In this document: in pieces, positions 12,482 through 58,885 of the stretch
Layout of the letters: the number at the start of each line of letters is the position of its first letter
Numbering within the stretch: the stretch's first letter is position 1
Assembly (NCBI GenBank): GCA_973895155.1
Contig: OZ316893.1
Location: 310,001 to 374,000, forward strand
Source: Marsupella aquatica
Lineage: Eukaryota; Plantae; Marchantiophyta
DNA length: 64,000 bases
Direction of reading: 5' to 3'
Translations under genes and position numbers: made by a program
Notes under the pieces: model-generated
What the model saw: the letters and a program-made list of their open reading frames with translations, nothing else
Databases searched by the model: none
Told to the model about the DNA's origin: nothing

Positions 12482-12535
12482 TATCGTTGTTATTTTCCTT
12501 TGTGAAAGGGTAATTCCATGGAAATATTTATTATC

Positions 12536-22432: not shown

Positions 22433-23810
22433 CCTACTCGACGAGGGTCTCTGACATGCGGTCGCGCTATCTGGCGAGCCTCTTTGTGGTGGATTAGGGA
22501 CTTCCTCGGTCGTTGAGTGTCATTTACTTTTCATCCCAAGTCATTCTCGGCGGGGGTCTCCGAGATTCTGAGATGGATTCTCATAGACTTTTATCTAGAA
22601 TCCTACTTGGCGAGGGTCTCTGACATTCGGTTGCGCTATCTGGCGAGCCTTTCTGTGGTGGATTAGGGACTTCCTTGGTCGCTGAGTGTCATTTACTTTT
22701 CATCCCAAGTCATTCTCGGCGGGTGTCTCCGAGATTCTGAGATGGATTCTCATAGACTTTTATCTAGAATCCTACTCGGCGAGGGTCTCTGACATGCGGT
22801 CGCGCTATCTGGCAAGCCTCTCTGTGGTGGATTAGGGACTTCCTCGGTCGTTGAGTATCATTTACTTTTCATCCCAAGTCATTCTTGGCGGGGGTCTTCG
22901 AGTTTCTGAGATGGATTCTCATAGACTTTTATCTAGAATCCTACTTGACGAGGGTCACTGACATGCGGTCGCGCTATCTGGCGACCCTCTCTGTGGTGGA
23001 TTAGGGACTTCCTTGGTTGCTGAGTGTCATTTACTTTTCATCCCAAGTCATTCTTGGCGGGGGTCTCCAAGATTCTGAGATGGATTCTCATAGACTTTTA
23101 TCTAGAATCCTACTCGGCGAGGGTCTCTGACATGCGGTCGCGCTATCTGGCAAGCCTCTCTGTGGTGGATTAGGGACTTCCTCGGTCGCTGAGTGTCATT
23201 TACTTTTCATCCCAAGTCATTCTCGATGGGGGTCTCCAAGATTCTAAGATGGATTCTCATAGACTTTTACCTAGAATCCTACTCGGCGAGAGTCTCTGAC
23301 ATGCGGTCGTGCTATCTGGCAAGCCTCTCTGTGGTGGATTAGGGACTTCCTCGGTCGCTGAGTGTCATTTACTTTTCATCCCAAGTCATTCTCGGTGGGG
23401 GTCTCCGAGATTCTAAGATGGATTCTCATAGACTTTTACCTAGAATCCTACTCGGCGAGGGTCTCTGACATGCGGTCGCGCTATCTGGCAAGCCTCTCTG
23501 TGGTGGATTAGGGACTTCCTTGGTCGCTGAGTGTCATTTACTTTTCATCCCAAGTCATTCTCGGCGGGGGTCTCCAAGATTCTGAGATGGATTCTCATAG
23601 ACTTTTATCTAGAATCCTACTCGACGAGGGTCACTGACATGCGGTCGCGCTATCTGGCGAGCCTCTCTATGGTGGATTAGGGACTTCCTTGGTCGCTGAG
23701 TGTCATTTACTTTTCATCCCAAGTCATTCTTGGCGGGTGTCTTCGAGATTCTAAGATGGGGTCTCATAGACTTTTACCTAGAATCCTACTCGGCGAGGGT
23801 CTCTGACATT
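22433..23810. repeat. 169-bp tandem array, 8 full copies plus a partial
   Basis: Unit starts CCTACTCGGCGAGGGTCTCTGACAT at 22433, 22602, 22771, 22940, 23109, 23278, 23447, 23616, 23785. Confidence 0.97.
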
Positions 23811-24029
23811 TAGTTTCCACCCTAAATTATTCTTGGTGGGGGTCTCTGAGATGGACTCGGGTCATTTGGGCAACAGTCTTTGTACTCGGCGAGCCTCTCT
23901 GAGATTGTAGATTTGTACGGACACGCGATCCATACAGAATTACATTGTAAAAACATTGAAAAGTATTGTACGGTCAGTTTTTGCATGCACTTTTGGGTTC
24001 ATCCTTGTATTTTGGCGAGGGTCTGACAT

Positions 24030-25465
24030 CAAATGTGGGATAGAACCAATTTGGGTCCTTCATTTGAAACGGAATACCCTTAATTTCATCTCGGAGAGGG
24101 TCTCTAAGAGACACAGTGTATGTTGTAGCTAACCCTTTGAAACTATTAACAGGGTCCATAAGTGGTGTCATCTGGCCAAAGTACGCCCACGACTCCATCT
24201 CAGAGAGGGTCTCCGAGAGGCTGGGTCTCATTTGGCGACCTTTCTGACCCAATATGCGATCTGGGAGAACTGCTCTCTGGCCACTTGGGGCACACGGCTC
24301 CATCTCAGAGAGGGTCTTCGAGCAATTGGGTTGCAATCTCGCTTCCCTTTCCACCCAAGACGCGATTGACAATTTTTGCCGTCTGGCCGTTCGGGCCACA
24401 CCACTCCATCTCAGAGAGGGTCTTTGACATCGGATGTTGGATAGAACCAATTTGGGTCCTTCCTTTGAAACGGAATACCCTTAATTTCATCTCGGAGAGG
24501 GTCTCTGAGAGACACAGTGTATGTTGTAGCTAACCCTTTGAAACTGTTAACAGGGTCCACAAGTGGTGTCATCTGGCCAAAGTACGCCCACGACTCCATC
24601 TCAGAGAGGGTCTCCGAGAGGCTGGGTCTCATTTGGCGACCTTTCTGACCCAATATGCGATATGGGAGAACTGCTCTCTGGCCACTTGGGGCACACGGCT
24701 CCATCTCAGAGAGGGTCTCCGAGCGATTGGGTTGCATTGGGTTGCAACCTCGCTTCCATTTCCACCCAAGACACAATTGACAATTTTTGCCGTCTGGCCA
24801 TTCGGGCCACACCACTCCATCTCAGAGAGGGTCTCTAACATCGGATGTTGGATAGAACCAATTTGGGTCCTTCCTTTGAAACGAAATACCCTTAATTTCA
24901 TCTCGGAGAGGGTCTCTGGGAGACACAATGTATGTTGTAGCTAACCCTTTGAAATTGTTAACAGGGTCCACAAGTGGTGTCATCTGGCCAAAGTACGCCC
25001 ATGACTCCATCTCAGAGAGGGTCTCCGAGAGGCTGGGTCTCATTTGGCGACCTTTCTGACCCAATATGCTATCTGGGAGAACTGCTCTCTGGCCACTTGG
25101 GGCACATGGCTCCATCTCAGAGAGGGTCTCTGAGCGATTGGGTTGCAATCTCGCTTCCCTTTCCACCCAAGACGCGATTGACAATTTTTGCCGTCTGGCC
25201 GTTCGGGCCACACCACTCCATCTCAGAGACGGTCTCTGACATCGGATGTGGGATAGAACCAATTTGGGTCCTTCCTTTGAAACAAAATACCCTTAATTTC
25301 ATCTCGAAGAGGGTCTCTGAGAGACACAATGTATGTTGTAGCTAACCCTTTGAAACTGTTAACAGGGTCCACAAGTGGTGTCATCTGGCCAAAGTACGCC
25401 CATGACTCCATCTCAGAGAGGGTCTCCGAGAGGCTGGGTCTCATTTGGCGACCTTTTTGACCCAA
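24030..25465. repeat. ~401-bp tandem array, ~3.5 copies
   Basis: GATAGAACCAATTTGGGTCC recurs at ~24040, 24440, 24851, 25252. Confidence 0.95.
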
Positions 25466-26568
25466 GAAGCATACTTTTCTACCGTGAAGTTCGCTAGAGT
25501 GTTGGACTTTTTTCTACTTCTCATATTTTACCCTAAACCCTAAACCCTAAACATAATTGGCTGCCTTTATTAAGTCTCCTCCAACAAACCCTCCTTGATC
25601 TTGTTGACTTGTGCTCTTCCCCCTTCTCTTAACCCCAATTTCCTCTTTTAGTTAAGCCACCCAAATGATAATGCATGTGGGCAACCATTTCCTCTTTGAG
25701 CTGACGCACCGAGATGTTGACACGTCTCAGTAGGCCTCGGAATGAAATGACGGCGAGGGTCTCCTACATTCGGACTCATTTGAGTTGTAAGCCGAAGTCC
25801 CTAATTGTACCCTAAATGTACCCTAAACTCTCTCGTACTAGTGGTGGTCAGTACTCGCGTTAGCATTGTGTACTTTCTTGTTTGGGCCGTTAACATGTAC
25901 GTATCAAAGTATAGTTAGGATCTCCCGTATCTATTGCGTACTTTAGTGTTGTGCAGTACGTGCGGTACGTTATTCCTTGAAGTGGATGTCGTTCCTTCCC
26001 CGTCACTCTTCCACGGTGTGACACCTTAGGTTTGGCGCTCGTCTTTATCACTAATCCCCAGACCTTCTTACTCTGCCTCACTCTTTTGCATCCCTTACTC
26101 GTTCGTGCTCTAATCCGCGCTCTTCCTCAATCTTCGCATATTGGTCTGTGCAATCTCTCACTTCTCCGCGCTCACATCCGTGTTGTTCCTGCTCTTCTTC
26201 AGTCGTCCCACTCACGGTAAACTCTCCTGTGCAACCCTGTTATCGTGTCTACTGGATTGCGTTGGTGTTTTGAGGCAGTGAGCGTGTGGTAGCTTCTCCG
26301 TGAGCATTTAGGCAACATTTTTTTGTGAGCATTTGCGACAATGATTTGCCGTGAACGTTGGTGATTCTCTCATGTTTTTCTCTTGGCTCCCCCTTTTTCT
26401 TGATATGTCAAATCCATTTGTAGATGAATCAAATGTGTGAGAGGCTGGACCCCGCGTATCCTTGAAAACGGGCTCTCTCGGCGGGGCTCGCTGAGATCTT
26501 GTCAGGTTTATAGGTCGAGCTATTGCCGAGTAATAACTCTTTCATTTCTCATGTAATCTAAGGTCAAA

Positions 26569-27450
26569 ATGCCGAAGAGGAAAGACTCGACTGGAGCTGG
26601 ACCTGCCGACAGCCAAACTTCTCAATGGAGTAAGAAACCACGATCCAAGTCTCCTTCGCCAGTCACGTCTCGACTGACGTGCTCACAGGGTTGTCCACTT
26701 ATGGAGTCAGTCGACTCCAAGAGGAAGTTTGAGCCAAAGCAGATATCATTTGAGCCTATTGGAGCGGCGGAATTGGCTGATATTGCTGAGAAGGGAGCCT
26801 AGGAGTCTATCGTCTCCAAGTATGAGACAAAGTTTAGTAAGGATCCGCCCCGGATCCCCTTGTGCCGGCTCATGCCAATGGAGGCAGTGAGGAATCTTCA
26901 GGATGAGTCGATTGCAAAATTAAAAAAAGGATTCAAAGAGAGCGGCTATGTTGTGAAGCTCAGCGAGTTCCACATTACTGAGTTCAATGAAATTGGAGAA
27001 ATGCAGACAGTGACAGACTTCAAGCCATTTTGGGACCCTCTATGGACTCAGCTCAATGAACAATTTGAGCAAGAGTGCGATGCATTAGAGGAGTTCAAAG
27101 TCCTTAAGGACAAGATGTTTTGGGTTTTTGATGGAAACCACAGATACACAGCCTGGTCCGCAGTTGCTTCTGAGTATCCGGATCAATTTCAATACCATCC
27201 GTGCGTCAGATTCTCTCTTTTGAACGCTGGGAAGGACGGATTCAAGAAGGTTGAGCAAGCAATGCACGCTCTCAACTCGTAACTACTCTCATTCGCGTCT
27301 TTTTGCAAAATGTGATTACCCGTTTGTGTAAACCTTGTGTGCCATCCTGGAGAGCCTCTTTGAAATTGCCGCTATGAGTATTGTTTGTCATTTTCAGGAT
27401 AAGTGCGACTGTCGTGAAGACGTCCTAGTTTAATGACGCTGATCGGGTTG
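26569..27450 (+). pseudogene. 5' exons of Mutator cargo gene: ParB/Srx-like domain
   Basis: RIPLCRLMPMEAVRNLQDESIAKLKKGFKESGY...FWVFDGNHRYTAW; in-frame TAG at 26800; GT-AG intron 27279-27397; frame resumes across copy B at 46368. Confidence 0.7.
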
Positions 27451-28352
27451 TGTGGTGCGTCCCATGGCTCCCTAAACCCCAGAAACCCCCCTTCACAAGC
27501 CGATTCCCGCGGGTTTTGCGCTTGGCGAGGCCGTTTCCGCGGCTTAGCGGTATGGGACGCTGCTAACCTTCTACTACTACTATTAACATTTTACACACAT
27601 ATACTGGACAGATCCTTCATCGGGTCATGAGATACGTAGCCGGCCTAATCTAGGCCTTCCCTTGTCTTCCCCTCCGTCTTGTTAGGTATGTTTGGATTCC
27701 ACCGCCGGAATGATCCCCAATAGGCTTGGTTAAGTCGCTAAGACCTCTCTCAGCTCGACACATCCAACTCTCACTCCCCTGCTTACTTTCCTTCCTCTAC
27801 TAGTTGATGTGGGCACTCTTCACACAAGTTAATGCAACACACAAATAGCAAAATGACTCCTTTTGACTGAGTCATACCATGCACTTGCCATACAAACAGT
27901 ACATCTCATACACAAGCCCTACGAACTAAGCCGTGAGGCCAACTCTATTAAGCTCTTAGGCATGAGGAAACATGAATATACACAAGGGTCACTGTATGAC
28001 TAACCGAGAGCTTCTCTTACTACTTGATCCCAGCCTGGCTGGTGCAAACTAAAAACTTGCTAAAGAAGAGGCCCTGAGCTCCCCGCTGCCCAGGTACTTA
28101 TCCTGGTAGTGGATCCGCCTAATTCTTTGCAGCGTAAGCCTAATCTACTTAACTGGATCTACCTATGTACAGCGAGGCAGAAGTACAAGTGTTGCTCTTA
28201 CCAGTGGAACCGCAATCCCACTAAGCTAAGTGTCAGGGCCGCCTCCTGGTCATGATCCTAATCCTAAACTAAGAGATCTGAGCCCGCCCTGCCCACTCAC
28301 GCCTCCTCCCTCCACGTCCGCCCTTCCTAAAAGGAATGGCGCCCTTGCACCG

Positions 28353-31300
28353 TCACGACACCGGTGGTGGATCCTCAATGGACGCCCCCAATGCTTCCAC
28401 CTCAGCCACTGCCGTAGGTTCGTTTTCTGACAGATTACCTGCCCTTGACTGAGTCAACTCTCCATCGGCCTGACTGGGTCCACCCCCGGTAACGGCATCG
28501 GCTTCAACATCAGCCTCGGCTACGGCCTCAGCTTTGGCCACGGCCTCCCCGGCCTGCTCAAGAGGTGGATCTGGGATACCGGCCTCATTACTGAGTAGTT
28601 CGGCTTGGGCCACGCCATCCCCACCTTTGGTGATAGCGGGATCTATTGTCGTGTTCATGCCGGAGGTTGGTACCGGTTTGAGTACGGCTTGAGGGGTCGA
28701 ATAACCTCCGGACCCCAAAGGTTTCCGCTTCTTCTTCTTCACTATCTCCATAGTCGGTTCCTTTCCCTTGCCACCAACGTCCGGCACCGGGCCGTGTGTC
28801 ACGGCTGGTCCTTCGGCAATTACCACCCCGGGTAACTGGTTTGCCCCAACGGGAGATGGACCTGATGCAACTAAGCATTTAAATACTGCGGCTTGTTTCT
28901 TCAGCCGCTCTGTTTGGTTGTCGGCCCGCCGCTGTAGGTTCTCCATCTTCCTTGTGATTTCCTCCAACTCCTCCTGGGTCTCATCCAGGTCCTTACGTGC
29001 CTCCTCCAGCTCGTTTTTGGCTTCCTCCAATTCCGTGTGGGCTTCCTCCAATTCCTTCTTGGTGGTAGCCCTCTCCTCCTGGGTTGCTCTTAGCTCCTTG
29101 TCGAGCTCCGCTACAACCTCAAACTCCATGCTATTCATCTTGGCATAAGTCTGGTCGAGCTGGGCGTCCTTCTCCCGCAGGTCGGCCTTGAAGCTGGCCG
29201 TCAGGGACGCAAGCTCCTGCTGTAGCGCAATAATCCCTTGATAGGATTTCCCTAACTCGGCCTCCTTCTGCTCAAGGGCTTTGCGGATGACCTCGAGCTC
29301 TTCCTTCAGCGCCCTCTCCCTTCTCTGAGTCTCTGCCGCGACCCGGTTGTTGACTGCTATATGGGCCTCCTCTGCGTCTCTCAGCTCCTTCTTCCATTTC
29401 TCCCTGTCCTTGATTGCGCCGGCCAATTCTCCCTGGGTCTGAGTCAGTTTATCCTTGATAATCTTATTATCAGCCTGCGCGGTGTCCAACTGCCCCTGCA
29501 TGATGTTCAGCTCATGCCGCTTAATCCGCAGTTCATCTTGGGCTTTCTTGGCCGCCCTTAGATCTTCAATCTCGGCTTCCATCCTCCTAAGCCGCCGGAT
29601 GACCTCGTCCTTCTTGCTTCTCTCTAAAGCCACCGCTTCTTCTAATTGGTGCTTCTCCAACTGCTCCCTATGGAAAAAGGGTCCTACCTCCAACTCCTCC
29701 CCAAAGATGCCGAGCGCAAGTTCCCCACATATCTCACCATACTCCATGGCTCTATTTTTAGCGTAGGTGGAGTAAGTAGAAGTGATCGGCATCGCCCATC
29801 GCGGCCTCTGCTCCCAAGCCGTCTTGCGGATCTCTTCAATCGTGGCTAGAGGTTTGCTTCCTTTTTTGGTTAGCCGCCTGATGTCCTCCGGCCAATCTCC
29901 TCCTGGCAAATCCTTTTCCCTAGCCAGGGCTGCCTTTTCTGCTTCCCTAAGTCGCTCCTGAAATTCCTGCGCCGTCTACTTTATGCCGTCAAAGCTCGGG
30001 GGAGCAACATCTGGTGGGGGAGACTCGGGGCTACTCTGCTGGTTGGGGTCCCCTCGAACTACCCTTGGAAGTGTGGGGATAAACCGGCCACAGGTCCTTA
30101 CTCCTGGAACGTGATGGTCCGACCCATAGCTGGAGTTATCATGGCTGCAGTCCTCCACTGCCTCCTCCACCTCTTGGACTTCCGGCTTCTCCCTCTCCTC
30201 TTCGCCGGTAGGAGCTTCAGGCAATTCCGCCTCAAATTCAGAGCTTGAGACTCCCACGTACATTCAAACACCCGGCTTGGATTCTGGCCTGATTCTCTCC
30301 TTATTTCTGGTAAAGGGGTTTTCCCTTCTAAGTCTGCTTAGGTTGACCTCTGGGGCAGTATCCTGTACTGGTGCCGCTGCCGAAGCTAGTGCCGTCTTTT
30401 CCTTCTCCAGCATTTTCAGCAGATTTTGTATGCTTGGTTGCTGCATGGGCAAGTCTTCCTTCCTTGGCCTAAACACCTACTCAATCGTAGGGCTAACAGG
30501 TGGTTGAGGCCTCTCTGCTACCGGCCTCGGTGCTGGAGCTTCCTCGGGTGCCCTTACCTGTAGGGGAAGTACTGGGGCGAAGGGTTTTCCCTTCTAAGTC
30601 TGCTTAGGTTGACCTCTAGGGCAGTGTCCTGTACTGGTGCCACTGCCAAAGCTAGTGCCGTCTTTTCCTTCTCGAGTAATTTCAGCAGATTCTGCATGCC
30701 TGGTTGCTGCATCGGCAAGTCCTCCATCCTTGGTCTAAACACCTGCTCGATTGTAGGACTATCGGGCGGGTTGGGTTTCTCCGTTGCCGGTGTCTGCTCC
30801 GGGTCCTCCTCCGGTGCTCTTGCCGATAGGGGAAGTACTGGGGCAAAGATTTGACTTCTGGCATACCGGCACAACAGCGGCATGTGATAGCCAAGCCGGG
30901 ACACGCTTCCCACGCCGATCACCTGCTGTTCCTCCTTCAAGATCTTCTTCAGTTGGTTGAGGAGGTACCCATTGTAATCCCGGCTTGGGTCTGGCCTTTC
31001 TGCCAGGTAGACCTGAGCCTTGCCGATCTCTGCCCTCGGCAAGTTACAATGCATGGTCACCCGCAAGAAGTCGATCATCTCTCCTATGTGCGGGTTGGTG
31101 CAGGTGTTCCGGAAGAAGCCATTCTTCATTGATGGCCTGGGGAACGACCGGAACTCCTTGTCAGGCAAGGTCTTCCTGGTATCAACTTTGGTCTTATTGC
31201 CTATCGGCAAGCCAAACACTTCGGCAATCACCTTGGGAGTAAGATAGAAATCCTTCCCATATATCCTCGTGGAATTGGTCTCGGGTTCCCATGACCCCAC

Positions 31301-32201
31301 GAATTCTAATAGGTCTGAATCCGGCACCTTCGGCTTCAGCCATGGTAATCTTACAAAGGCCTCTAAGCCGGATCCGGCCATGAAGCCTTGGTACTTCTTG
31401 GTCTGCATGGCCGTAAAGCATGCATCCTCCTCCCGTGCAAAATGTAGTTGCACCTCCTCTGGTAGGGTTGCCGCCCAACCTTTCCAGGTGTCATCCCTGG
31501 TTGGAATGGCATTGATGGGATCGTCCTCCTCCTCTTCGGCTTCTCCCTACCTCCTGCTCTGCTGCTCGGCTGGCTTCTTTGGTGCCGCCGACCTCGTTCT
31601 TTTTGTCGGGGTGGCTTCATCGTTGATGGCTCCCTTCCTCTTCATTTCGGCTCCCGTGGATGTCTCTCCTAGCACGGTTGCCTTTGTCCACCCCTCCGTG
31701 CTACCCCTCAACTCCCAGGGTATGTTGTTGCAGCGTTTGATGGCTTCTCGGATGCCGACGACTCTATCTTTGCAAAACAGAAGATCGTCGAGCTGATTGG
31801 AAGTAGGAGTCCACAAGAACTCGGCCTTGATGAGTTCGCCTCCTAAGAAAGCCATCTTCTACAGCTCCCACAATCGAGCGAGCTCCTGCCGTTCTCGAGC
31901 TGCCCTTTCTAATTCTTCGTCCTCTTAAGTCTTGATGTACTTGGTTGCCCGTTCGAACAGGCATCCCCAGAAATGTGTCGCTTGATTGACGTTGCTCATA
32001 CCCTCCTTAGGTCGATCGTCGGTATCTACTCTCTCCCCGAGTGCTTGCCTAAGCAGCTGACAGTAGTTGGCCTCCCGTAGTCGTCTGCCTAGTTTTGTGC
32101 TCGCAAATGAGCCACCATTCCCTGCAAGCGCTCCTTACCCCTCTCCTCTTCCGGTTCTTCCTCCCGTTGATCCTTCCTAGCCGCCGACGCTTAGCGCGCC
32201 C
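28353..32201 (-). pseudogene. Family-1 ORF, copy B, with several stops and an internal ~270-bp duplication
   Basis: ORF pieces 31547-31855, 30554-31453, 30264-30476, 29976-30263, 28353-29909 are colinear with the copy A/C protein. Confidence 0.85.
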
Positions 32202-45381: not shown

Positions 45382-45387
45382 TATAAG
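45382..45387 (+). promoter_or_regulatory. Putative LTR TATA box (CTATAAGACCCC)
   Basis: Resembles the plant LTR CTATAAATACCCC context; lies downstream of the family-2 ORF and ~800 bp before the CA end. Confidence 0.45.
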
Positions 45388-46362: not shown

Positions 46363-46976
46363 GGTTGCAAAGCTATTGAACACTCCATTGGAGGAGTACA
46401 GTTTGCTCATGTCAAAGGAGACAATGGAGGCTTTCATGAAGGCCCAAAATCGAGGACATGGGAAGACTTGGTACTCGAAGGATATGACAAAAGAAGCCGC
46501 TATGTACATCATGTCTTGGTCAAACATTGAAGCGGGACGAATCAATATCTCCAAGGAGATGGCACAAGACGCAGCTCGTGGGCACCCGTGAAGTGTGAAG
46601 AGAACTGAGGAGGAGACGGAGGCAATGATTATTGTTGCATGCAAGGCCTGGGACAACAAGTTTCCCAAGCTTGTGGCCTGCGTGAATCCGGCCAATGGAG
46701 ACCAGTTCATGCCGGTATGTCGGCAGCTGTATCACAAGTTGTCAAAGGATGCCAAGCAGGGTGTGATGAATGTATAGGGTCCGCTTGTTTGCTGGGGCTT
46801 GGGTAACTGCAGAGTGCAGAGTAAAGCTATTGAAAGCTCATTTTGGAACGGAGGAGGAGAAGAGTATGTATCACCATCCACGTAGCAATGGTGATGCTGC
46901 AATTAGATCCTGGTTAGCGGTCTGGTCAATGTGGTGTTACATTGACCACGTTGGTTGTGTGATTTTGACCGATTTT
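46363..46976 (+). pseudogene. Middle segment of the Mutator cargo gene
   Basis: Frame continues from 27450 (DADRV-AKLLNTPLEEY) and continues at 59601 on the minus strand (ILTDF-AAKAYQRQMYREF). Confidence 0.8.
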
Positions 46977-49900
46977 TGTGGTGCATCCCATGGCTCCCTA
47001 AACCCAAGAAACCCCCCAGCTCAACCCGATTCCCGCAGGTTTCGCGCTTGGCGAGGCCGTTTCCATGGCTTAGCGGCATGGGACGCTGCTAACCTTCTAC
47101 TACTACTATTAACATTTTACACACATATACTGGACAGATCCTTCATCGGGTCATGAGATACGTAGCCGGCCTAATCTAGGCCTTCCCCTGTCTTCCCCTC
47201 CGTCTTGTTAGGTATGTTTGGATTCCGCCGCCGGAATGATCCCCAATAGGCTTGGTTAAGCCGCTAAGACCTCTCTCAGCTCGACACATCCAACTCTCAC
47301 TCCCCTGCTTACTTTCCTTCCTTTTGGTTGATGTGGGCACTCTTCACACAAGTTAATGCGACACACAAATAGCAAAATGACTCATTCTGACTGAGTCATA
47401 CCATGCACTTGCCATACAAATAGTACATCTCATACACAAGCTCTGCGAACTAAGCCGTGAGGCCAACTCTATTCAGCTCTTAGGCATGAGGAAACATGAA
47501 TATACACAAGGGTCACTGTATGACTAACCGAGAGCTTCTCGTACTACTTGATCCCAGCCCGGCTGGTGCAAACTAAAAACTTGCTAAAGAAGAGGCCCTG
47601 AGCTCCCCGCTGCCCAGGTACTTATCCTGGTAGTGGATCCGCCATTCTTTGCATCGTAAGCCTAATCTACCTAACAGTAATCTACTTGCCCGAATCTACC
47701 TATGTACAGCAAGGCAGGAGCACAAGTGTTGCTCCTACTAGTGGGACCGCAATCCCACTAAGCTAAGTGTCAGGGCCGCTCCTGGTCCTGATCCTAATCC
47801 TAAACTTGGAGATCCGCGCCCGCCCTGCCCACTCACGCCTCCTCCCTCCACGTCCGCCCTCCCTAAAAGGAACGACGCCCTTGCACCGTCACGACACCGG
47901 TGGAGGATCCTTAATGGACGCCCCCAACGCTTCCTCCTCAGCCACTGCCGTAGGTTCATTCTCTGACAGATTACCTGCCCTTGACTGAGTCAACTCTCCA
48001 TCGGCCTGACTGGGTCCACCATCGGCGTCGGCATCGGCTCGGGAATCGGTTACGGCCTCAGCCTCGGCTATGGTCTCCCCGGCCTGCTCAAGAGGCGGAT
48101 CTGGAATACCGGCCTCATTACTGAGTAGTTCGGCTTGGGCCGCACCACCCCCACCTATGATGATAGCGGGATCTATTGCCGTATTCATGCCGGAGGATGG
48201 TGCTGGTTCTACCTCCTTGGTCACCACGGCTTGTGGAGTCGGATTACTCCTTGACCCTGAAGGTTTCTGCTTTTTCTTCTTTTCTGGTTCGGCAGCTGGT
48301 CCCTTCCCCTTCCCACTTACTTCCGGCACTGGTGCAGGTGGCGCGGCTTTTTCTTCGGCCAGTACCACTCCTGGTAACTTAATTGGTTGCCCCAATTGGA
48401 GTTGGGCCTGATGAAGACAAGCACTTAAATACTGCGGCTTGTTTCTTCAGCCGCTCCGTTTGGTTGTCGGCCCGCCGCTGGAGGTTCTCCATCTTCCTCG
48501 TGATTTCCTCCAACTCCTCCTAGGTCTCATCCAGGTCCTTGCGTGCCTCCTCTAGTTCCTTCTGGGCTTCCTCCCGTTCTTGTTTCAAGGTAGTCCTCTC
48601 CTCCCGGGTTGCTCTTAGCTCCTTGTCGAGCTCTGCAATGATGACAGACTCCATCTGGTTCATCTTGGCGTAAGTCTGTTCGAGCATCTCGTCCTTCTCC
48701 CTTAGGTCGGCCTTGAAGCTGGCCGTCAGGGACGCAAGCTCCTGCTGCAGCGCCATAATCCCTTGATAGGATTTCCCTAACTCGGCCTCCTTCTGCTCAA
48801 GGGCTCCGCGGATTTTCTCAAGCTCCCCCTTCAACGCCCATTCCTTTCTTTGGGTCTCCGCCATGGCCCGGCTGTTGGCTGTTATGTGGGCCTCCTCTGT
48901 ATTCTTCAGCTCTTGCTTCCACTTCTCCCTCTCTTTGATCGTGTCGGCCAACTCTCCCTGCGTCTGAGTCAGTTTATCCTTGATATTCTGATTATCAGCC
49001 TGCGCGGTGTCCAACTGCCCCTGCATGATGTTCAGCTCATGCCGTTTAATCCGCAGTTCATCTTGGGCTTTCTTGGCCGCCCTTAGATCTTCAATCTCGG
49101 CTTCCATCCTCCTAAGCCGCCAAATAACCTTGTCCTTCTTGCTTCTCTCTAAAGCCACCGCTTCTTCTAATTGGTGCTTCTCCAACTGCTCCCTATGGAA
49201 AAAGGGTCCTACCTCCAAGTCCTCTCCAAAGATGCCGAGCGCAAGTTCCCCACACATCTCACCATACTCCATGGCTCTATTCTTAGCGTAGGTGGAGTAA
49301 GTAGAAGTGATCGGCATCGCCCATCGCGGCCTCTGCTCCCAAGCCGTCTTGCGGATCTCTTCAATCGTGGCTAGAGGTTTGCTTCCTTTTTTGGCTAGCC
49401 GCCTGATGTCCTCCGGCCAATCTCCTCCTGGTAAATCCTTTTCCCTAGCCAGGGCTGCCTCCTCTTCCTGCCTGATTCGCTCCTGAAATTCCTGCACCGT
49501 CTGTTTTATGCCGTCGAAGCTCGGGGGAGCAACATCTGGTGGGGGAGACTCAGGGCTACTCTGCTGGTTGGGGTCCCCTCGCACTACCCTTGGAAGTGTG
49601 GGGACAAACCGGCCACAGGTCCTTACTCCTGGAACGTGATGGTCCGACCCATAGCCGGAATTATCATGGCTGCAGTCCTCCACTGCCTCCTCTACTTCTT
49701 GGACGTCCGGCTTCTCCCTCTCCCCTTCGTCGGTAGGAGCTTCAGGCAATTCTGCCTCAGATTTGGAGCTTGAGATTCCCACATACATTCGAACACCTGG
49801 CTTGGATTCCGGCCTGATTCTCTCCTTGTCTCCAGCAAAGGGGTTTTCTCTTGTGAGCCGGTGTAGGCCTACCTCTGTAGTAGTGTCCTGCATTGTTGCC

Positions 49901-51640
49901 GTTGCCGTTGTTGTTGCCGATGCCGATTTCTTTTCTTTCTCCAGTAGTTTCAGCAGACTCTGCATGCCTGGTTGCTGCATCGGCAAGTCCTCCTTCTTGG
50001 GCCTAAACACTTGCTCGATCGTAGGGCTAACAGGTGGTTGAGGCTTCTCAGCCAACGGCCTCGGCGTTGGAGCTTCCTCGGGTGCCCTTACCTGCAGGGG
50101 AAGTACTGGGGCAAAAGTCTGACCTCTGGCATACCGGCACAACAACGGCATGTGATAGCCAAGCCGCGACACGCTCCCCATGCCGATTACCTGCTGCTCC
50201 TCCTTTAAGATCTTCTTCAATTGGTTGAGGAGGTACCCGTTGTAGTCCCGGCTTGGGTCTGGCCTTTTTGCCAGATAGACCTATGCCTTGCCGATCTCTG
50301 CCCTCGGCAAGTTACAATGCATGGTCACCCGCAAGAAGTCGATCATCTCTCCTATGTGCGGGTTGGTGCAGGTGTTCCGGAAGAAGCCATTCTTCGTTGA
50401 TGGCCCGGGGAACGACCGGAACTCCTTGTCAGGCAAGGTCTTCCTGGTATCAACTTTGGTCTTATTGCCTATTGGCAAGCCAAACACTTCGGCAATTACC
50501 TTGGGAGTAAGATAGAAATCCTTCCCATATATCCTCGTGCAATTGGTCTCGGGTTCCCATGACCCCACGAATTCTAATAGGTCTGACTCCGGTACCTCCG
50601 GCTTCAGCCATGGTAATCTTACAAAGGCCTCTAAGCCGGATCCGGCCATGAAGCCTTGGTACTTCTTGGTCTGCATGGCCGTGAAGCATGCATCCTCCTC
50701 CCGTGCAAAATGTAGTTGCACCTCCACCGGTAGGGTTGCCGCCCAGCCCTTCCAGGTGTCATCCCTGGTTGGAATGGCCTTGATGGGATCGACCTCCTCC
50801 TCTTTGGCTTCTCCCTGCCTCCTGCTCTGCTGCTCGGCTGGCTTCTTTGGTGCCGCCGACCTCGTTCTTTTTGCCGGGGTGGCTTCATCGTTGACGGCTC
50901 CCTTCCTCTTCATCTCTGCTGCCGTGGAGGTTTCTCCTAGCACCGTTGCCTGGGTCCACCTTTCCGTGCTACCCTTTAATTCCCAGTGTATGTCGTTGCA
51001 GTTCTTGATGGCCTCTCGGATGCCGACGACGCTGTCTTTGCAAAACAGAAGATCGTCGAGTTGATTGGAAGTAGGCGTCCATAGGAACTCGTCCTTGATG
51101 AGTTCGCCTCCTAAGAAAGCCGTCTTCTGCAGCTCCCACAATCGAGCGAGCTCCTGCCATTCTCGAGCTGCCCTTTCTGATTCCTCGTCCTCGTAAGTCT
51201 TGATGTACTCAGTTGCCCGTTCGAACAGGCATCCCCAGAAATGTGCCGCTTGATTGACGTTGCTCATACCCTCCTTAGGTCGATCGTTGGTATCTACTCT
51301 CTCCCCGAGTGCTTGCCTAAGCAACTGACAGTAGTTGGCCTCCCGTAGTCGTCTGCCTAGTTCGTGCTCGCAAATGAGCCACCATCTCCTGCAAGCGCTC
51401 CTTACCCCTCTCCTCTGCCGGTCCTTCTTCCCGTTGATCCTTCCTAGCGGCCGACGCTTAACGCGCCCTAACCCTAATCGGGTTTTCACCCTCAGCCTTA
51501 CCTCCGGCCTCGGCCCGGGTTCCATGGTTGCCCCTAATTGTTTATATTTTCCTTGTTTTGTCCCTATACTAAGGTGTTCCTAGGATGCCTTCCTGCTTTA
51601 CCCACTTAACCGGCCGAGTGATTCCTGTCTAGGCATCACA
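46977..51640 (-). mobile_element. Family-1 TG...CA unit, copy C, full length 4,664 bp
   Basis: Ends TGTGGTGCAT (46977) and GGCATCACA (51640); left flank ATTTT has its partner as AAAAT at 59597-59601. Confidence 0.95.
47889..51525 (-). pseudogene. Family-1 ORF, copy C
   Basis: Pieces 50281-51525, 48520-50220, 47889-48395; two CAG>TAG stops and a 4-bp insertion near 48380. Confidence 0.85.
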
Positions 51641-51862
51641 GAAGACAAGGGAAGGCCTAGATTAGGCCGGCTACGTATCTCATGACCCGATGAAGGATCT
51701 GTCCAGTATATATGTGTAAAATGTTAATAGTAGTAGTAGAAGGAGGTTAGCAGCGTCCCATGCCACTAAGCCGCGGAAACGGCCTCGCCAAGCGCGGAAC
51801 CTGCGGGAATCGGCTTGTGAAGGGGGGTTTCTAGGGTTTAGGGAGCCATGGGACGCACCACA
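51641..51862 (+). mobile_element. Family-1 copy E: terminal 222 bp of the 3' end
   Basis: Reverse complement of 27451-27670 and 46977-47195; ends GGACGCACCACA next to Gypsy pol. Confidence 0.92.
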
Positions 51863-54087
51863 CAGATCGATCTCATGTTAGGGGCCAAATCATTTCGACA
51901 ACCGATTCGACGGATGAACCCTAAGTATTCTTTGATGGTAAAAACTGAAATCAACAAGCTAGTAGAAGCCGGATTCATCACTCCAGTCCTACACTCAGAC
52001 TGGGTGTCTCCAATTGTGATAGTTCCCAAGAAAGCTGGACCCGATGGTAAACCAAAGATCCGGGTTTGTCAGGATTACAGGAAGTTGAATGAGGCTATGT
52101 TACAAGACCATTTTCCTTTACCCTTTACTGATATCGTACTAGACATGGTAGCTAGTCATGAACTATACTCATTCATGGATGGATACTCTGGTTATAACCA
52201 AATCAGGATTAGGCAAGAGGACCAAATCAAGACGGCCTTCATCACGGAATGGGGGATCTATGTCTTCAATCGTATGCCGTTTGGACTCTGTAACGCACCA
52301 GCAATGTTCCAACAATTAATGGTGAACATTTTCCACGACTACTTGAGAAAATTCATGGAAATCTTCATTGATGCCTTTGCAGTGTTTGGGAAGGCATCAA
52401 AACATGCTAAATACCTCAGGAAAACCTTCATGAGATGCAGAGAGGTAGGTCTCAAGTTACACCCCAATAAATGTTTCTTTGGAGTAACAGAGGGTGTGCT
52501 ACTAGGTCACAAGGTATCAAAGAAGGGCATTGAGATTGATAAGGGTAAGCTAGTAGTATGGCTAGATATCATGCAACCTAAGAACATAAAGGATGTGAGA
52601 TCCTTCTTGGGGTGCATTGGCTATTATCGCCGGTTCATCAAGGACTTTGCCAAACTAGCTTTACCATTAACCAACATGCTCAAAGCAGGTGCAGACTTTG
52701 AACCCACACCAGAACGAGTAACAGTAGTAGTAGAATTGAAGCAAATGTTAGTAGAGGCCCCAGTCATGATAGCACCAGACTGGAACAAGGATTTTCATGT
52801 CTTTGTAGATGTCTCAGGCTTCTGTATCGGCTCAGTACTAAGTCAGTTGGATGAGAAAGGAAGGGACCATCCCATATACTTTGCAAGCCGCCAACTTGCC
52901 GATGCCGAACACAATTACTCCACCACAGAAAGAGAAGCATTAGGAGTCATTTATTCCTGTAAAAAGTTTAGGCATTATTTACTGGGGTACAAGGTAATCT
53001 TTCATACCGATCATGAAAGTTTGAAGTACCTAGTAAATAAGCCGGACCTTATAGGCAGGGTAACAAGATGGATTTTGCTATTACAGGAGTTTGACTACAA
53101 GCTAAAAATCAAGCCAAGAAAGCTACACGCCAATGCCGACTTCTTTTCAAGGATCACAGGTGAACCTGCCACGGATTGCATCGATGATCGATTTCCCGAC
53201 GAGGAGCTATTCGTTATGGAAATAGCTGATACATGGTACCCTGAGATTTTACAATTTCTCAGCACATCCAGATTACAGCCAAGGCTAAACAGAGAGCAAG
53301 CTGCAGTCTTTCTACGGAAGGTCAGACAGTATCAGTGCATTAAGGGCATCCTACACAAGTATGGAATCAGCGGCACGATTCAAAGGTGTTTGGAAAAAGG
53401 AGAGGTAAGACGAGTCCTACGGGCTATGCATGGGGAGGAAGCCGGAGGACATTTTGCTCCAACAACCACATCTAAAAAGATATTAAATGCCGGTTACTGG
53501 TGGCCACCTTGCACAAGGATGTCTATCAGTTTATCAAACAATGCGACCCTTGTCAACGAGCGGGAGGACCAAGGGCGTCCACAAGACATCCACTGCACCC
53601 TATTCTACCTCTGGCACCATTTGAGAAATGGGGTATTGACTACTTGGGACCTCTGAAACCATTGACCCATCCTTGAAAAAACAAGTACATAATCCTGGCC
53701 ACGGATTATGCAACTAAGTGGGTAGAGGCCAGGCCGACAACGAAGGATGATGCAATTACTACGGCTTGATTCATGTATGAGCAGATCTTCACCAAGTATG
53801 GCGCACCCCTAGAATTAGTTAGTGATAGAGGAACCCATTTTCTGAATGATATAATTAGTCGTTTAAATGAGCAGTATTTAGTTAGACATAGGCCTACTAC
53901 TCCCTACCACCCAAAGGCAAATGGGTTGACAGAACGAGCAAATGGAATTATAGGAAAGATATTGAACAAAACCGTAGCTCAAAACAAACTCGATTGGGAT
54001 GATAAATTGTTTGCTGCTATTTTTGCTTACAATTTAGCCTATAAATCCACTACCGGTCATACACCCTTTTTCTTAACCTTTGGACAG
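51863..54087 (+). pseudogene. pol: Gypsy pol fragment (RT, RNase H, integrase)
   Basis: SPIVIVPKK, MPFGLCNAP, FIDAF (mutated DD), VFVDVSG, VSDRGTHF, NGLTER; closely related to 62760-64000. Confidence 0.93.
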
Positions 54088-54521
54088 GGAGGTACACAAC
54101 TTCATCAATTATCAGTGACTTTCATCAGTCACTGATATCAGTCTGTGCCCGAAACTCAGCGACGCCGCCGACATGGACTTAATTCACACCCACAGTCAAA
54201 CCCTATGTTGGCATCCACTCCGACATTGTTTTGGTTCAGACAATTAGTAATGTCGGCTGCCTCTCTGACCATCTTGGTGCCCTTTCTAACCATCTTGGCG
54301 CCCTCTCTGAGATATCCTTGGAGTGTTGTTCCATCTCGGCTGAGCTCGCCAAGATGAAAACATACCCAGCAACGTGTACAACATAGCATATCAAATAGGA
54401 GCCACATTAAGAACGTTTGGATGACACACTTTTTATTAAGCTTTGTACTTTACAACGATGTTGTCTATCTCAATTTTCTGAACTAAATTCCACTAGGCTG
54501 TGTCTCCATCTTCCATCCTCT

Positions 54522-55711
54522 CTACAGGGTAATTGTCTGGCAGACAAGGTCCACAACAATCTTTTGTCGCATGATGTCTATAAGTGCAGGGTCAAAGTTC
54601 AGTACGCCGCCTCCAGAAATACTCTCCATGTAGATAATGATATATACACCACAATTGTTATCATCCCCTTGACCTGGAATGTTATCTCGGTAAATGCGTG
54701 GCCATTCTAATGGACATAACAAGGTACGACCCCGCAAGATGGAGAGGTCCAAAAGAAACTGAGCTACTTTGAACACTTCTTTGCCATTCTGTGCTTTGGG
54801 CATAAGCGGATCAAGTAAATGCAGTTGCCGCAAGGCAGTATCAACCACAACTAGTACCCAGTGTTTTGGCCGGTAGACAGGGATTAAAATGTACTCGTGC
54901 TCCCACATTTGAATGCCCCGCCAATATGCCAACGCTGCGTTGAAGTTATATTCCGGAGTTGTCATCACTTGGTAAAAATGTGTTGGCAATAACATGGCCT
55001 TGGGTTTATGAAGGGTTTGTGCTCTTCATTCCAGTAAAGCAATGTAAGCATTGATGACGTCGCAAGTGATCCATTTTTTTGGCCTCAAGCATTTTAAATG
55101 TGCCCTCGTCAAGTGCACGTCCTCGATTGTCACTATGACCTCTTTTTGGTCCGCCTTGGGGTCCAATGCCTTCTTCACTATTGCCAAAAATTTGGATGGT
55201 TGCTGTTGTGTGGGCACTCCTTTGTTTGCAAGCCCCACCTCTTTCACTCCTGCCCGGGGAGTCAGCCCCTCATTCACTGGTTGCTCAGGTCTCTCCTGAG
55301 CTACAATGAAGGTAAATTCATTCAAACATTACTCTTCGGAACTGGAGCTTGATAATCTTATACTTACATGGTGAGTTTGGAGACTGTCACTTCCTACCGA
55401 GCTACTCTCATCCGATTGAGCTTCTTTTGCCCTATCATCGACAAATTTGAGAGTTTTCCTTTTTCTCTCTTGTACACAGCCAGGCACTATTTCTTCATGA
55501 TAGGTATCAGTAGCGTAGCACGGAAGGGTTAACTTCTTCGGCGAGAAATATGCCGAAGCTTCCTCCCACACGAGCTTGACAAGCCGTCTGTCCTGGCTGT
55601 CCCATTCCGCTGTAGCTGACTCGATAGTCCTATTGGGAACTGCTACTAAGTTATACTTAAATCCAATCAAATAATGTATTGCGCCCAAAATAGACGTAAA
55701 CAAGAAGGCAT
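54522..55711 (-). pseudogene. Ulp1/C48 SUMO-protease-like domain, 3' part of the Mutator cargo
   Basis: LKCLRPKKWITCDVINAYI, PTHFY, ILIPVYRPKHWVLVVVD, LLDPL, QGDDNNCGVYII (His-Asp-Cys triad present); in-frame stops at 55329 and 55026. Confidence 0.88.
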
Positions 55712-55739
55712 CTGTTGGGGAAGGTAGTCGACATGGATC

Positions 55740-56785
55740 AACGGATCTCGGAGAGGCCAGCCGAGATCACTCTTCCTCAGACGGATCTTGGAGAGGCCAG
55801 TCGAGATGACTATTCCTGAGACGAATCTCAGAGAGGCCAGCCAAGATTGACTATTCCTGAGACAGATCTTGGAGATGCCAGCCGAGATGACTTCCTGAGA
55901 TGGATCTCAGAGAGGCTAGCCGAGATGATTGTTCTTCAGATGGATCTCAAAGAGGCCAGCCGAGATTGACTCATCCTGAGACGGATCTCGGAGAGGCCAG
56001 CCGAGATGACTGTTCGGTACACGGATCTCAGAGAGGCCAGCCGAGATTGACTCTTCCTGAGACGGATCTCAGAGAGGCCAGCCGAGATTGACTCTTCCTA
56101 AGATGGATCTTGGAGAGGCCAGCCAAGATCACTCTTCCTGAGATGGATCTCGGAGAGGCCAGCCGAGATGACTATTCCTGAGACAGATCTCAGAGAGGCC
56201 AGCCGAGATTGACTCTTCCTGAGATGGATCTTGGATAGGCCAGCCAAGATCACTCTTCCTGAGACGGATCTCGGAGAGGCCAGCCGAGATGACTATTCCT
56301 GAGACGGATCTCAGAGAGGCCAGTAGAGATTGACTCTTCCTGAGACGGATCTTGGATAGGCCAGCCAAGATCACTCTTCCTGAGATGGATCTTGGAGAGG
56401 CCAGTCGAGATGACTATTCCTGAGACGGATCTCAGAGAGGCCAGCCGAGATTAACTCTTCCTGAGACGGATCTTGGAGAGGCCAGCCGAGATCACTCTTC
56501 CTGAGATGGATCTCGGAGAGGCCAGCCGAGATGACTATTCCTGAGACGGATCTCAGAGAGGCCAGCCGAGATTGACTCTTCCTGAGACGGATCTTGGATA
56601 GGCCAGCCAAGATCACTCTTCCTGAGACGGATCTCGAAGAGGCCAACCGAGATGACTATTCCTGAGACGGATCTTAGAGAGGCCAGTCGAGATTAACTCT
56701 TCCTGAGACGGATCTTGGAGAGGCCAGCCGAGATCACTCTTCCTCAGACGGATCTTGGAGAGGCCCGCCAAGATGACTCTTCCTG
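55740..56785. repeat. ~40-bp tandem array (~26 copies, ~121-bp higher-order unit), apparently intronic
   Basis: Unit GAGACGGATCTCGGAGAGGCCAGCCGAGAT(C/T/G)ACT(C/A)TTCCT; lies between a GTAAGT donor at ~57006 and a CAG acceptor at ~55712 on the minus strand. Confidence 0.95.
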
Positions 56786-57028
56786 AGTTGCATGTAGAGG
56801 AATGAATCTTGGCGAGGTCCGCCAACATGCATCTCAAGTTAGGACTTGCCCTCGCTTGTAGAGGAGGCCAGACACTATGAATGTCAGCGAGGTCAGCCGA
56901 CATGCATACATATCGGCGAGGCCGCTGACTTGTATCCCTCTATTGTCAACCATTGCGACGAGCAAGCAAATATGAAATGAACAATGTCAAACGCCAAAAA
57001 ACTTACATGTTGTTGGGAAAACTGCCGG

Positions 57029-58616
57029 CTATTTCTTCTTGCGCTTTTCTGGATTGGCTTTTGAACGGACCACCTCTTCCTCCTCCGGGGAGATCACTCC
57101 AACCAGTTGTGCCAATTGGTCTTGCGCACAAGTTCCAAAGTGAGGATAGGATTCAGTCCCAAACACCATCCGCCCGCAATTTTCACCCGCCTTGAATATT
57201 GCCCCAAACTGTGCGTTGAAAGTGAGGATAGTTGCCCCAGGGTGTGTTGTATATTCGATGATACATTGGAGCGTTGCTGGCGACAAAGTGCCCGCAAAAG
57301 GATCGTTAACCTGATTCTTCTTGGATGTATAGTTCGTTAGCCCATTCCTACTCTTCATATCGAGCTCTGCACTAATTGGTGCCACATCGTCCTTTGGGCA
57401 TATCTCTACAACAGATTGGTCTAGCTTGAGATATTCGCTCTGGATCGGCCAAACATATTCAGAGGTCAGACTTCCTCAGTTTAGGATAGTAAGTCATTGG
57501 AATAAAAAATAAATGAAGAAGTAGGTAATTGATGGGACTTACTCGCTTCCCAGTCCTACCATCGTAGGTGGGTGTGTCGTTCCAGATAAAGAAGCTTTCT
57601 TTCAACCCCCAGTTGGTATTCTCGTAAACTAATGCATCATAAATGCAAGTTGAGTGCCGAAGCGAACCACTGTGCACGATGGCAAACAGTCCTTCGGAAT
57701 CAAGGACATCTTGAGCAAACTCCTGAACCCGGTTCAAGTTGTCCTCCCGGAACAAATTCCACAACGGGGTGGACTTACCCTCAACCATATGCGTGTCTGT
57801 TCCCATATGTATCAGAATTAAATCTGCACCAGTCTTCACTCGCTTCCCCCCTTTTCTCCAAGCATTTTGACGCAAACCTTCCCGCAATAGCTTTCTGCAC
57901 CATGAGATCAATTTACTAACTACAGGAGGTTTGGTACCTTCTTTAGCCGCATCAAAAAAAGTTGTAAATAGATTTGGAGACCACCTAAAATACATATGTC
58001 TGCTCTGGGAAGACATGGTATTGGCATAAGGACGCCTTAATCCTTCCAGTTCTGTATTATCCTCTTCTCCAAGGGCCTCTTCATCCTCCTCATTTTCCAA
58101 TGTGGGGTCAGGTTGGATGGTTGTGGGCGGAACCTCTCCAGTGCCGGGCGGGGGAGGCGACTCAGTGGGGGAAGGAAGAGGAGGAAATTCCTCGTCACAT
58201 GCTTTGCTCGGGCTCCCTTTGGGAGCTTTGGGTCGCCTAGTTTGCTTTCTTTTTAAGGCCTTTTCCTTTTGCCGTGACAGTAATGGTGGCCGGTAAGGCA
58301 CAGGAGAGATATCAGACAAGCGCCCTTCGTCTCTGAATTGTTCTTTGTCCTCTTCCTCTCGCTCCTCTTCCTCTCGCTCACCCACATCATCCTCACCTTG
58401 CTGCTCGTCAGCCAATTCATCTTGTACTTCAGGAGCCTCATGCGGAGGCAAGTCAAATTCTTGCAGTGGAGCCTCGTCTGGACCCAACTCAACTATTGGT
58501 TGTTTATCCTTGTGCCCTGGACCCTGCGAAACCCCTGGACCGTCCTCAACTGCTGCCTTTGTAGCCGGCTCTACACCCTTGCTCTTGATAGAATCAGGTT
58601 CCGTTTGGATCTCTGC
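57029..58616 (-). pseudogene. Acidic/Pro-rich linker plus degenerate beta-class N4C/N6A DNA methyltransferase-like domain
   Basis: ADLILIH...VQEFAQDVLDSEGLFAIV...FFIWND, then PATLQCIIEYTTHPGATILTFNAQFGAIFKAGENCGRMVFGTE, which parallels P..L...I...T.PGD.VLDPFAGSGT...A...GR..IG.E; DPPY and FxGxG are not conserved. Confidence 0.6.
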
Positions 58617-58664
58617 ATGACTTGCATAGGATGCAAATTGATGAGCTTCATGATGGCAACTACA

Positions 58665-58885
58665 TCTCGGCGAGCCTTGCCAAGATCGGGTTCATTATAT
58701 GCAAGCAACTTATTACTCAACTAATACTTCATCTCGGCGAGCCTCGCCGACATCTGGACTGGACCAGACACTTAATCTCGGAGAGCCTTGCCAACATCTG
58801 GACTAGACCAGACACTTAATCTCGGAGAGCCTCGCCAACATATGGACTGGACCAGACACTTAATCTCGACGAGCCTCGCCAACCC
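58665..58885. repeat. ~42-bp tandem array (~4 copies plus one isolated motif)
   Basis: TAATCTCGGAGAGCCTCGCCAACATCTGGACTGGACCAGACACT-type unit. Confidence 0.9.

Follow-up and report, generated by a model that had tools for sequence, protein, structure and literature searches.

A 23-bp palindrome arrayed in a ParB-encoding Mutator-like element of the liverwort Marsupella aquatica is a candidate recognition site for the element's own ParB-type protein

As described in the relevant sections of the reports cited here, PAG3 of red-algal Plavaka elements (EnSpm/CACTA) has an N-terminal ParB-like domain and adjoins tandem arrays of inverted repeats; the authors' proposal is that it would bind and modify the transposon that carries it, and they note homologs in Mutator elements of Chondrus (bioRxiv 10.1101/2025.02.11.637652). 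The Sola1-1_Ec32 element of Ectocarpus encodes, on the strand opposite to its transposase, an accessory protein of 1104 amino acids combining a ParB-like and an N4C/N6A methyltransferase domain (PMC12477816), and ParB-HTH-fused Dam methyltransferases, group-2 enzymes, occur in certain chlorophytes and chytrids (PMC4738411). In the VANDAL elements of Arabidopsis the target of VANC is a 9-bp non-palindromic motif, differing between families, which forms single-orientation tandem arrays upstream of the transposase gene and in introns, and the anti-silencing action of VANC has been demonstrated (PMC5735166, PMC10398659). The AtMu1 transposase binds terminal repeats, where its binding peaks. Here we describe a broken Mutator-like element in a 64,000-nucleotide stretch of the liverwort Marsupella aquatica (assembly GCA_973895155.1, contig OZ316893.1, positions 310,001 to 374,000 of the forward strand; hereafter the window), in which a ParB-type cargo gene is accompanied by arrays of a 23-bp palindrome. 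On balance we lean towards the view that the palindrome is a ParB recognition site, and that its arrays mark the element as its own and keep it expressed against silencing by the host through DNA methylation; that a ParB-type protein is the binder of the palindrome is, judged from sequence, the part that we regard as probable.

A preliminary description of the window had put the palindrome at ATCTCGG-N9-CCGAGAT, in about 60 copies with a 9-bp spacer of constant length, and both statements stand. At up to 2 mismatches this pattern occurs 40 times in the 64 kb as against 0.24 times in 200 order-3 Markov shuffles, and at up to 3 mismatches 59 times as against 3.1 (53 of the 59 between 22433 and 58885, the interval first delimited for the family), while alternative spacers of 4-8 and 10-15 bp give 0-7 matches at the latter threshold, which is background. 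The spacer sequence, by implication unconstrained in the preliminary description, is not free: a symmetrised matrix yields the consensus ATCTCGGCGAG-S-CTCGCCGAGAT, a palindrome of layout 11-1-11 with the half-site ATCTCGG[AC]GA[GC], and since it runs through the full 23 bp a freely varying spacer was rejected. At 12 bits or more the matrix finds 76 sites as against a chance mean of 0.4 in 30 shuffles, confined to 20942-27366 and 54333-58885 (70 of them in the interval just given), with none in the intervening 27 kb and none in the flanks. As the matrix was trained on the window sites themselves, the useful control is the lack of matches across the other 52 kb. The sites comprise 17 in a 169-bp array, 14 in a 401-bp array, 26 in a 40/41-bp array, 4 in a 44-bp array (previously taken to have a period of 42 bp), 5 in a 132-bp array and 10 isolated copies. 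Thus the four arrays reported earlier are all present, with two, four and one palindromes per unit in the 169-, 401- and 40-bp arrays as stated, and the 132-bp array is a fifth. The latter lies in the reading frame of the transposase (20943-21555), so that the copies are not solely intergenic or intronic. The isolated copies noted near 23830, 23883, 26475, 56806 and 58665 were all recovered, with others at 25747 and 56881. Core identity between contexts is 71%, as against a unit-flank mean of 28% (171 pairs of 19 contexts); the claim that the remainder of each unit is unrelated therefore holds between arrays and fails within the 401-bp unit, whose internal sub-units are related to one another (19-20 of 30 flank bases the same).

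The two arms of a site vary independently (96 of 154 concordant, with 96.5 expected), which tells against a hairpin and in favour of half-by-half reading by a dimer. Of 16 arrays tested, 11 have a lower frequency of transversions and gaps within the palindrome than across the remainder of the unit, a comparison whose p-values are optimistic owing to the anchoring of units at the motif and to shared ancestry. In the coding 132-bp array only 1 of 40 third codon positions varies within the palindrome, as against 32 of 180 outside it. By these comparisons the half-sites appear conserved at the DNA level, as expected of sites of a protein dimer.

The cargo gene is divergent from the transposase gene and survives in three parts (Table 1), the first with two in-frame stops in the window copy. 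Its first coding exon was modelled with a predicted local distance difference test score (pLDDT) of 93, and the fold matches the ParB/Srx N-terminal domain, the structures recovered including ParB-CDP (6sdk; E 0.011, probability 1.0), KorB (Z 7.7) and PadC (Z 7.1), and also sulfiredoxin and SerK (Z 6.1-6.2). A ParB-type helical DNA-binding domain is predicted to follow, corresponding to residues 190-403 of the homolog P0155: in the model of the latter, built on a 64-row alignment, residues 182-384 match the DNA-binding domains of Spo0J (Z 5.1; root-mean-square deviation (rmsd) 3.1 over 93 residues), ParB-parS (Z 4.8) and KorB (Z 4.1), and residues 21-392 match the whole chains 7o0n, 7bm8 and 6sdk (Z 8.0-8.3, 179-199 residues, rmsd 6.9-7.7). 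The domain order is that of bacterial ParB, the Z-scores being modest, and the ParB-like character first ascribed to the cargo protein is borne out by the N-domain. The family has R30, a DGNHR motif and an invariant N158, which would correspond to the cytidine triphosphate (CTP) residues of ParB; the DGQHR-family match is weak (E 0.031). HMMER retrieved 228 homologs of the ParB exon and a word-based search with this exon none; the homologs have 1191-1244 amino acids, and those with names come from liverworts and ferns. The ParB alignment has no relative in the viral or prokaryotic genome contigs searched, Rfam gave no match, and a PDB sequence search with the full-length alignment returned nothing meaningful. 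No family match to a ParA ATPase was found in the 19 window open reading frames (ORFs) or the 48 related-locus ORFs scanned. The fern homolog P0065 is annotated with a NIF/FCP1 phosphatase domain at residues 955-1129 (E 2.4e-12), which may reflect either a genuine fusion or the joining of gene models.

The C-terminal domain is similar to N4/N6 DNA methyltransferases, and the collinear homologs P0153, P0160 and P0172 match PF01555 with E of 1e-5 to 8e-4, below the curated cut-off. The catalytic motif (D/N/S)PP(Y/F), TSPPY in MpDN4MT1, is degenerate, reading IHMGT (HMGT) in the window (57798-57812), while 11 rows from Riccia have D[LM]P[TS]; degenerate too is the S-adenosylmethionine (SAM) motif FxGxG, which reads TFNAQFG in the window (57203-57223) and DF[AV]G[GE]WG in those 4 Riccia rows that extend intact to this point. 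Contigs of runs X1 and X2 show no G>C majority change at the His of HMGT, so that this residue is common in the family and not peculiar to the window copy. The domain is thus likely to be a dead enzyme in the window lineage, and because the catalytic and SAM-binding motifs are lost, marking of the arrays with N4-methylcytosine or N6-methyladenine (4mC/6mA) is unlikely.

All arrays belong to one broken copy of the element, as follows from target duplications and from contigs of runs X1 and X2 that read from 59601 directly into 46972. Two long terminal repeat (LTR) insertions, both with 5-bp target duplications, split the ParB gene; the first carries no copy of the palindrome, and the two halves of the element now stand in opposite orientation, the right one having been inverted. 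Long Riccia sorocarpa homologs map collinearly to 26.8-27.3 kb (+), 46.4-47.0 kb (+) and 59.6-57.0 kb (-). A division of the left and right arrays between two elements was rejected on the target duplications and these empty-site contigs. Without the insertions 13.9 kb are left, holding the genes for the transposase, the ParB-methyltransferase-like protein and an Ulp1-type peptidase. Mutator elements have terminal inverted repeats and a target duplication of 8-10 bp; here the left end is missing, the element breaking off at about 19700, where loose contig ends lie in run X2, and the right end has no partner in the window. Thousands of variant contigs on the left part (5,539 in X1 and 3,261 in X2, some from the LTR) show that the element is a multi-copy family, read depth giving no copy number. 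The present copy is defunct, and methylation-type mutation is eroding its sites: of 113 mismatches in the CGG of the arms, C>T or G>A account for 110, an excess characteristic of methylated cytosine. In runs X1 and X6, contigs connect 54344-54356 with 56698-56920 on opposite strands, as though a segment of about 210 bp next to the Ulp1 gene were inverted in other copies, its joints falling at palindromes; this may reflect recombination at the palindrome sites or mis-joining.

The transposase gene, with one in-frame stop (21341-21343), has 68 homologs, the best 66% identical over 92% of the query and those with names from liverworts and ferns; it has no Pfam match and no relative in the viral contigs searched. 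All 10 of 10 named atlas hits of its homolog P0192 (33% identical, E 3e-58) belong to the Mutator-like element (MULE) family or clan, the best at 0.92, which lends moderate support to a transposase of MULE type and agrees with the original description of the element as Mutator-like. The close homolog P0182 has fewer repeats of the 132-bp type. The Ulp1 gene retains His, Asp, Gln and Cys motifs. No VANC-type Pfam family is present among the element ORFs, whose cargo has the ParB fold.

A metagenome scan supplied 80 related loci, 54 of them distinct, with 585,093 bases in all. Therein the window matrix matches only L001 (27.9 and 28.3 bits) and L002 (22.6 bits), the next best score being 12.2; both loci cluster with the window ParB (support 98/95) and have the site in the same intron as the window, the other intron bases being at best 0.9-2.6 standard deviations above shuffles. 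Other lineages have palindromes of their own around the ParB exon: CAACTTTYGG-CG-CCRAAAGTTG in L051, L079, L042, L069 and L058, dispersed upstream and, in 4 of the 5, forming a 51-bp array downstream; GAGGTGCC-N6-GGCACCTC in a 138-bp array of L003; GGGTGGCCG-TTAA-CGGCCACCC in 105- and 182-bp arrays of L078; TTCGG-CG-CCGAA in 127- and 75-bp arrays of L004; TGTCTCGG-N2-CCGAGACA in six loci that belong to the same clade; and a CATATG-type palindrome in L059 and L070. Several lineages have a TCGG...CCGA core with a 2-bp centre, as against 9 bp in the window clade. A cross-scan of the matrices is near-diagonal, with overlap only between those of L051 and L070. In a ParB tree of 25 labelled rows, from which unlabelled loci and L078 were left out, each labelled palindrome type occupies one side of a branch, with 10 changes as against 16.9 for shuffled labels. 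Hence the co-variation of palindrome with ParB lineage, suggested earlier as a check, is found; as kin share labels, the tree shows co-descent and not co-evolution, and because ParB and transposase both descend with the element, co-variation cannot tell the one protein from the other. Among 22 distinct loci with at least 1 kb upstream, 11 have at least 5 palindrome copies within 3.5 kb of the ParB exon (14 before 3 AT-rich satellites were set aside), as against 2 of 28 control stretches (p 0.0009). L010 as a counterexample to the link of ParB and palindrome was rejected, L003-type sites having been found there after the tree was labelled. At L059 (4930-5367) a 51-bp array is situated where the N-terminal part of the related transposase is encoded, free of that locus's ParB-side palindrome and comparable to the in-frame 132-bp array of the window.

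Based on these observations we propose that a dimer of the ParB-type protein would bind the palindrome with one half-site per subunit, and that tandem amplification would make the sites denser at the pair of divergent promoters, within introns and ahead of the Ulp1 gene. The bound protein would cover the CG/CCG cytosines of each arm and may spread, as VANC does with a different fold. Shielding or recruitment would be more likely than writing of 4mC/6mA, because the methyltransferase-like domain is likely dead; by analogy with VANC, anti-silencing is the most likely purpose of such a system. The position of the sites favours ParB over the transposase as the binder, since they are internal and lie around the ParB gene both here and in relatives, some of which have no transposase match. 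Such arrays also accompany ParB in red-algal elements whose transposase is of another superfamily, as described in the section on PAG3, and this we likewise count for binding by ParB.

Several observations weigh against this proposal. In 5 of the 16 arrays, including the 169-, 401- and 44-bp arrays of the window, the palindrome is no better conserved than the rest of the unit. The structural Z-scores lie in a range that the tool rates as uncertain where models are helical, none of the Foldseek matches reaches E 0.001, and the two-domain model is that of a Riccia homolog (P0155) and not of the window protein. Of the 22 loci mentioned above, 5 (L054, L034, L045, L057 and L064) have no palindrome family, 3 have AT-rich satellites only and 3 two copies only; palindrome-negative loci are not clearly more decayed, and stop-codon counts provide no explanation. 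Palindrome type tracks the transposase too, through descent of the whole element. Finally, a ParB-free CACTA element nested in the window has its own 23-bp spaced dyad in 13 copies, which implies that such dyads do not require ParB.

A more specific form of the proposal, which we entertain only tentatively, is a domesticated ParB-parS sliding clamp, in which a nucleotide-gated dimer would load at family-specific palindromes and spread along the element that encodes it, its dead methyltransferase fold shielding CG/CCG from methylation by the host. With no firmer commitment the family can be seen as a natural library of protein-site pairs, including the spacer switch from 2 to 9 bp with an unchanged half-site, which would amount to a programmable anti-silencing code independent of VANC. 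It is rather unlikely that ParB binds the palindromes for bridging or compaction of an element of more than 14 kb during transposition, or for repression of its divergent promoters. KorB, which represses promoters on plasmid RK2, is indeed among the best single-domain matches (Z 7.7), the densest sites lie between divergent genes, the methyltransferase motifs are lost, and site spacings in 21 arrays and sub-units lean to whole helical turns (period 10.6 bp, Rayleigh p 0.007-0.015), a weak phasing since the spacings are not independent; however, sites are also found in introns, in a coding linker and on the promoter side of the Ulp1 gene, as reported for VANC targets, and the methyltransferase-like fusion points to DNA modification or its reading.

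Less probable again is that the transposase binds the palindromes as a sequence-specific activator, the ParB gene being a passenger. The AtMu1 transposase alone binds and hypomethylates its cognate copies, and in the window one array lies inside the transposase gene, worn sites occur near the preserved end and the ParB-free CACTA element has its own dyad; furthermore, the same transposase family is found divergently upstream of ParB in L003, L029, L042, L054 and L059. Yet AtMu1 binding, as reported, peaks at terminal repeats, whereas the first 170 bp of the preserved end are siteless here and 75 of 76 sites lie more than 1.6 kb from it; L054 and L029 have the transposase and no palindrome family, L051, L079 and L058 have palindromes around ParB and no transposase match in 6-10 kb upstream, and the CACTA dyads, unlike the palindromes, concentrate in the outer parts of their element. 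Binding by a transcription or chromatin factor of the host, put to use by the element, would fit the promoter-proximal and intronic placement of the sites, but it is very improbable, given that the sequence changes with each ParB lineage, down to a spacer that goes from 2 to 9 bp while the TCTCGG arm is shared, and that 23 bp is long for the site of a plant factor. We give hardly any weight to a hairpin or cruciform, or to a neutral seed amplified with satellites and lacking a protein partner: 58 of the 76 sites do lie in three recently homogenised or single-seed arrays, leaving about 19 independent contexts, and some arrays lack extra conservation, but selection for hairpins was rejected for want of compensatory pairing between the arms, and the motif has persisted in contexts that are otherwise unrelated, in the introns of three lineages despite their divergence, and at codon positions that are silent.

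The nested CACTA element (34149-43956) encodes Transposase_21 (36835-38106), DUF4218/DUF4216 (34827-36302) and a SET-domain ORF (38260-38931) and has no ParB gene. Its dyad, TTGCGA-N11-TCGCAA, occurs with a spacer of 11 only, and is also present in L042 and L044 (13711-14322). A 38-bp exact inverted match links this element (36351-36388) to the methyltransferase-like exon (57298-57335) and is possibly a captured fragment. At 46977-51640, 7318-11551, 27451-32202 and 59602-61853 lies a gypsy-associated repeat of about 4.7 kb (TGTGG...CATCACA) that is very abundant and seems to be a long LTR, with a long coiled-coil ORF on the minus strand. Remains of a copia-type gag-protease-integrase region (11792-13725, minus strand) are inserted beside a gypsy element, and a 524-codon ORF with a fungal-type protein kinase domain (15661-17235, minus strand; PF17667, E 4e-7) lies amid transposon remains.

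Table 1. Genes, palindrome sites, insertions and preserved end of the Mutator-like element, in window coordinates
Feature	Position	Strand	Remarks
Mutator-like DDE transposase gene, 5' two thirds	19700..21964	-	truncated at about 19700 by unrelated DNA
132-bp (44-codon) array	20942..21555		in frame with transposase; each unit with one palindrome: 20942, 21074, 21206, 21338, 21470
Worn single palindrome	21680		next to 132-bp coding array
169-bp array	22432..23809		17 sites, two in each unit; separates the divergent transposase and ParB genes
Isolated palindromes	23830 and 23883		within 23830..23905
401-bp array	24022..25465		four palindromes per unit, 14 sites; unit of related sub-units of about 105 bp
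Isolated palindromes	25747 and 26475		25747..26497; upstream of ParB coding exon
ParB gene, part 1	26569..27450	+	ParB/Srx N-domain, DGNHR; intron 27279-27397; next exon cut by LTR
Worn intronic palindrome	27344		in ParB gene intron 27279-27397
First LTR insertion, with nested elements	27451..46362		target duplication GGTTG, 27446-27450 / 46363-46367
ParB gene, part 2	46363..46976	+	homologous to P0155 residues 190-403, E 4e-20
Second LTR insertion and gypsy pol fragment	46977..54086		target duplication ATTTT, 46972-46976 / reverse strand 59601-59597
Preserved (right) element end	about 54087-54102		54087..54355; abuts gypsy pol
Outermost strong palindrome	54333		246 bp inside preserved end; worn copies 54260-54310
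Ulp1-type (Peptidase C48) cargo gene, in pieces	54522..55766	-	PF02902, E 1.3e-10
40/41-bp array, with neighbours	55741..56903		26 palindromes; between ParB gene end and Ulp1 gene
Isolated palindromes	56806 and 56881		between ParB gene end and Ulp1 gene
ParB gene, part 3	57029..59601	-	helical region, intron with 44-bp array, acidic linker, N4/N6-methyltransferase-like domain
Isolated palindrome	58664		adjoins splice acceptor
Intronic 44-bp array, with neighbour	58664..58885		sites 58731, 58775, 58819, 58863

The algal ParB accessory genes have been a proposed second route without a defined site; the window element supplies an exact 23-bp candidate, together with a predicted DNA-binding domain and about nine lineage-specific pairs of protein and palindrome, among relatives that include liverwort and fern proteins. 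These pairs make the idea directly testable in tractable plants. If it is true, a module of bacterial chromosome segregation acts on eukaryotic chromatin as a self-recognition device of transposons, and the design put forward for seaweed transposons, ParB cargo with site arrays, extends to land plants. In our survey of the literature, mainly of openly accessible papers and their main texts, no land-plant or site-level account of this ParB family was found.

The arrangement is reminiscent of bacterial ParB-parS, Noc-NBS, KorB-operator and SopB-sopC systems in its N-domain followed by a predicted DNA-binding domain and in the multiple palindromic sites near the gene, and the 40/41-bp array, each unit of which has a single palindrome, is similar to sopC in layout. 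Unlike the bacterial systems, it has no ParA among the ORFs scanned, DGNHR in place of a GERR-type motif, a longer site, large helical insertions, a methyltransferase-like tail and eukaryotic introns, and partition is implausible as the function of a transposon that is integrated. With the ParB-HTH-Dam fusions of chlorophytes and chytrids, as reported, it shares the presence in a eukaryote of a ParB-methyltransferase of prokaryotic origin. Like VANDAL elements, as described, it is a Mutator-like element with cargo genes and a family-specific motif tandemly amplified in non-coding DNA, the window having in addition one coding array; unlike the VANC system, its site is a 23-bp palindrome, its protein has the ParB fold and its anti-silencing role is proposed by analogy. 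As in the published account of Sola1-1_Ec32, ParB and a PF01555-type domain are joined in one protein encoded on the strand opposite to the transposase; there the element is of a brown alga, with a Sola transposase and a methyltransferase domain predicted to be active, whereas here the motifs are degenerate, and the word stem "palindrom" is absent from the main text of that report (PMC12477816). PAG3 too, in the section devoted to it, has a ParB N-domain beside inverted-repeat arrays, with a 2-oxoglutarate oxygenase C-domain and an EnSpm transposase where the window element, from a land plant and with an Ulp1 gene, has a methyltransferase-like C-domain and a MULE-like transposase; that section gives no site sequence, lineage-by-lineage code or model of a DNA-binding domain. 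Already known, then, are ParB cargo beside inverted-repeat arrays in red algae and ParB-methyltransferase cargo in Ectocarpus; what is new is a Mutator host from a land plant, a site that is defined, a code that differs by lineage and a methyltransferase that is likely dead.

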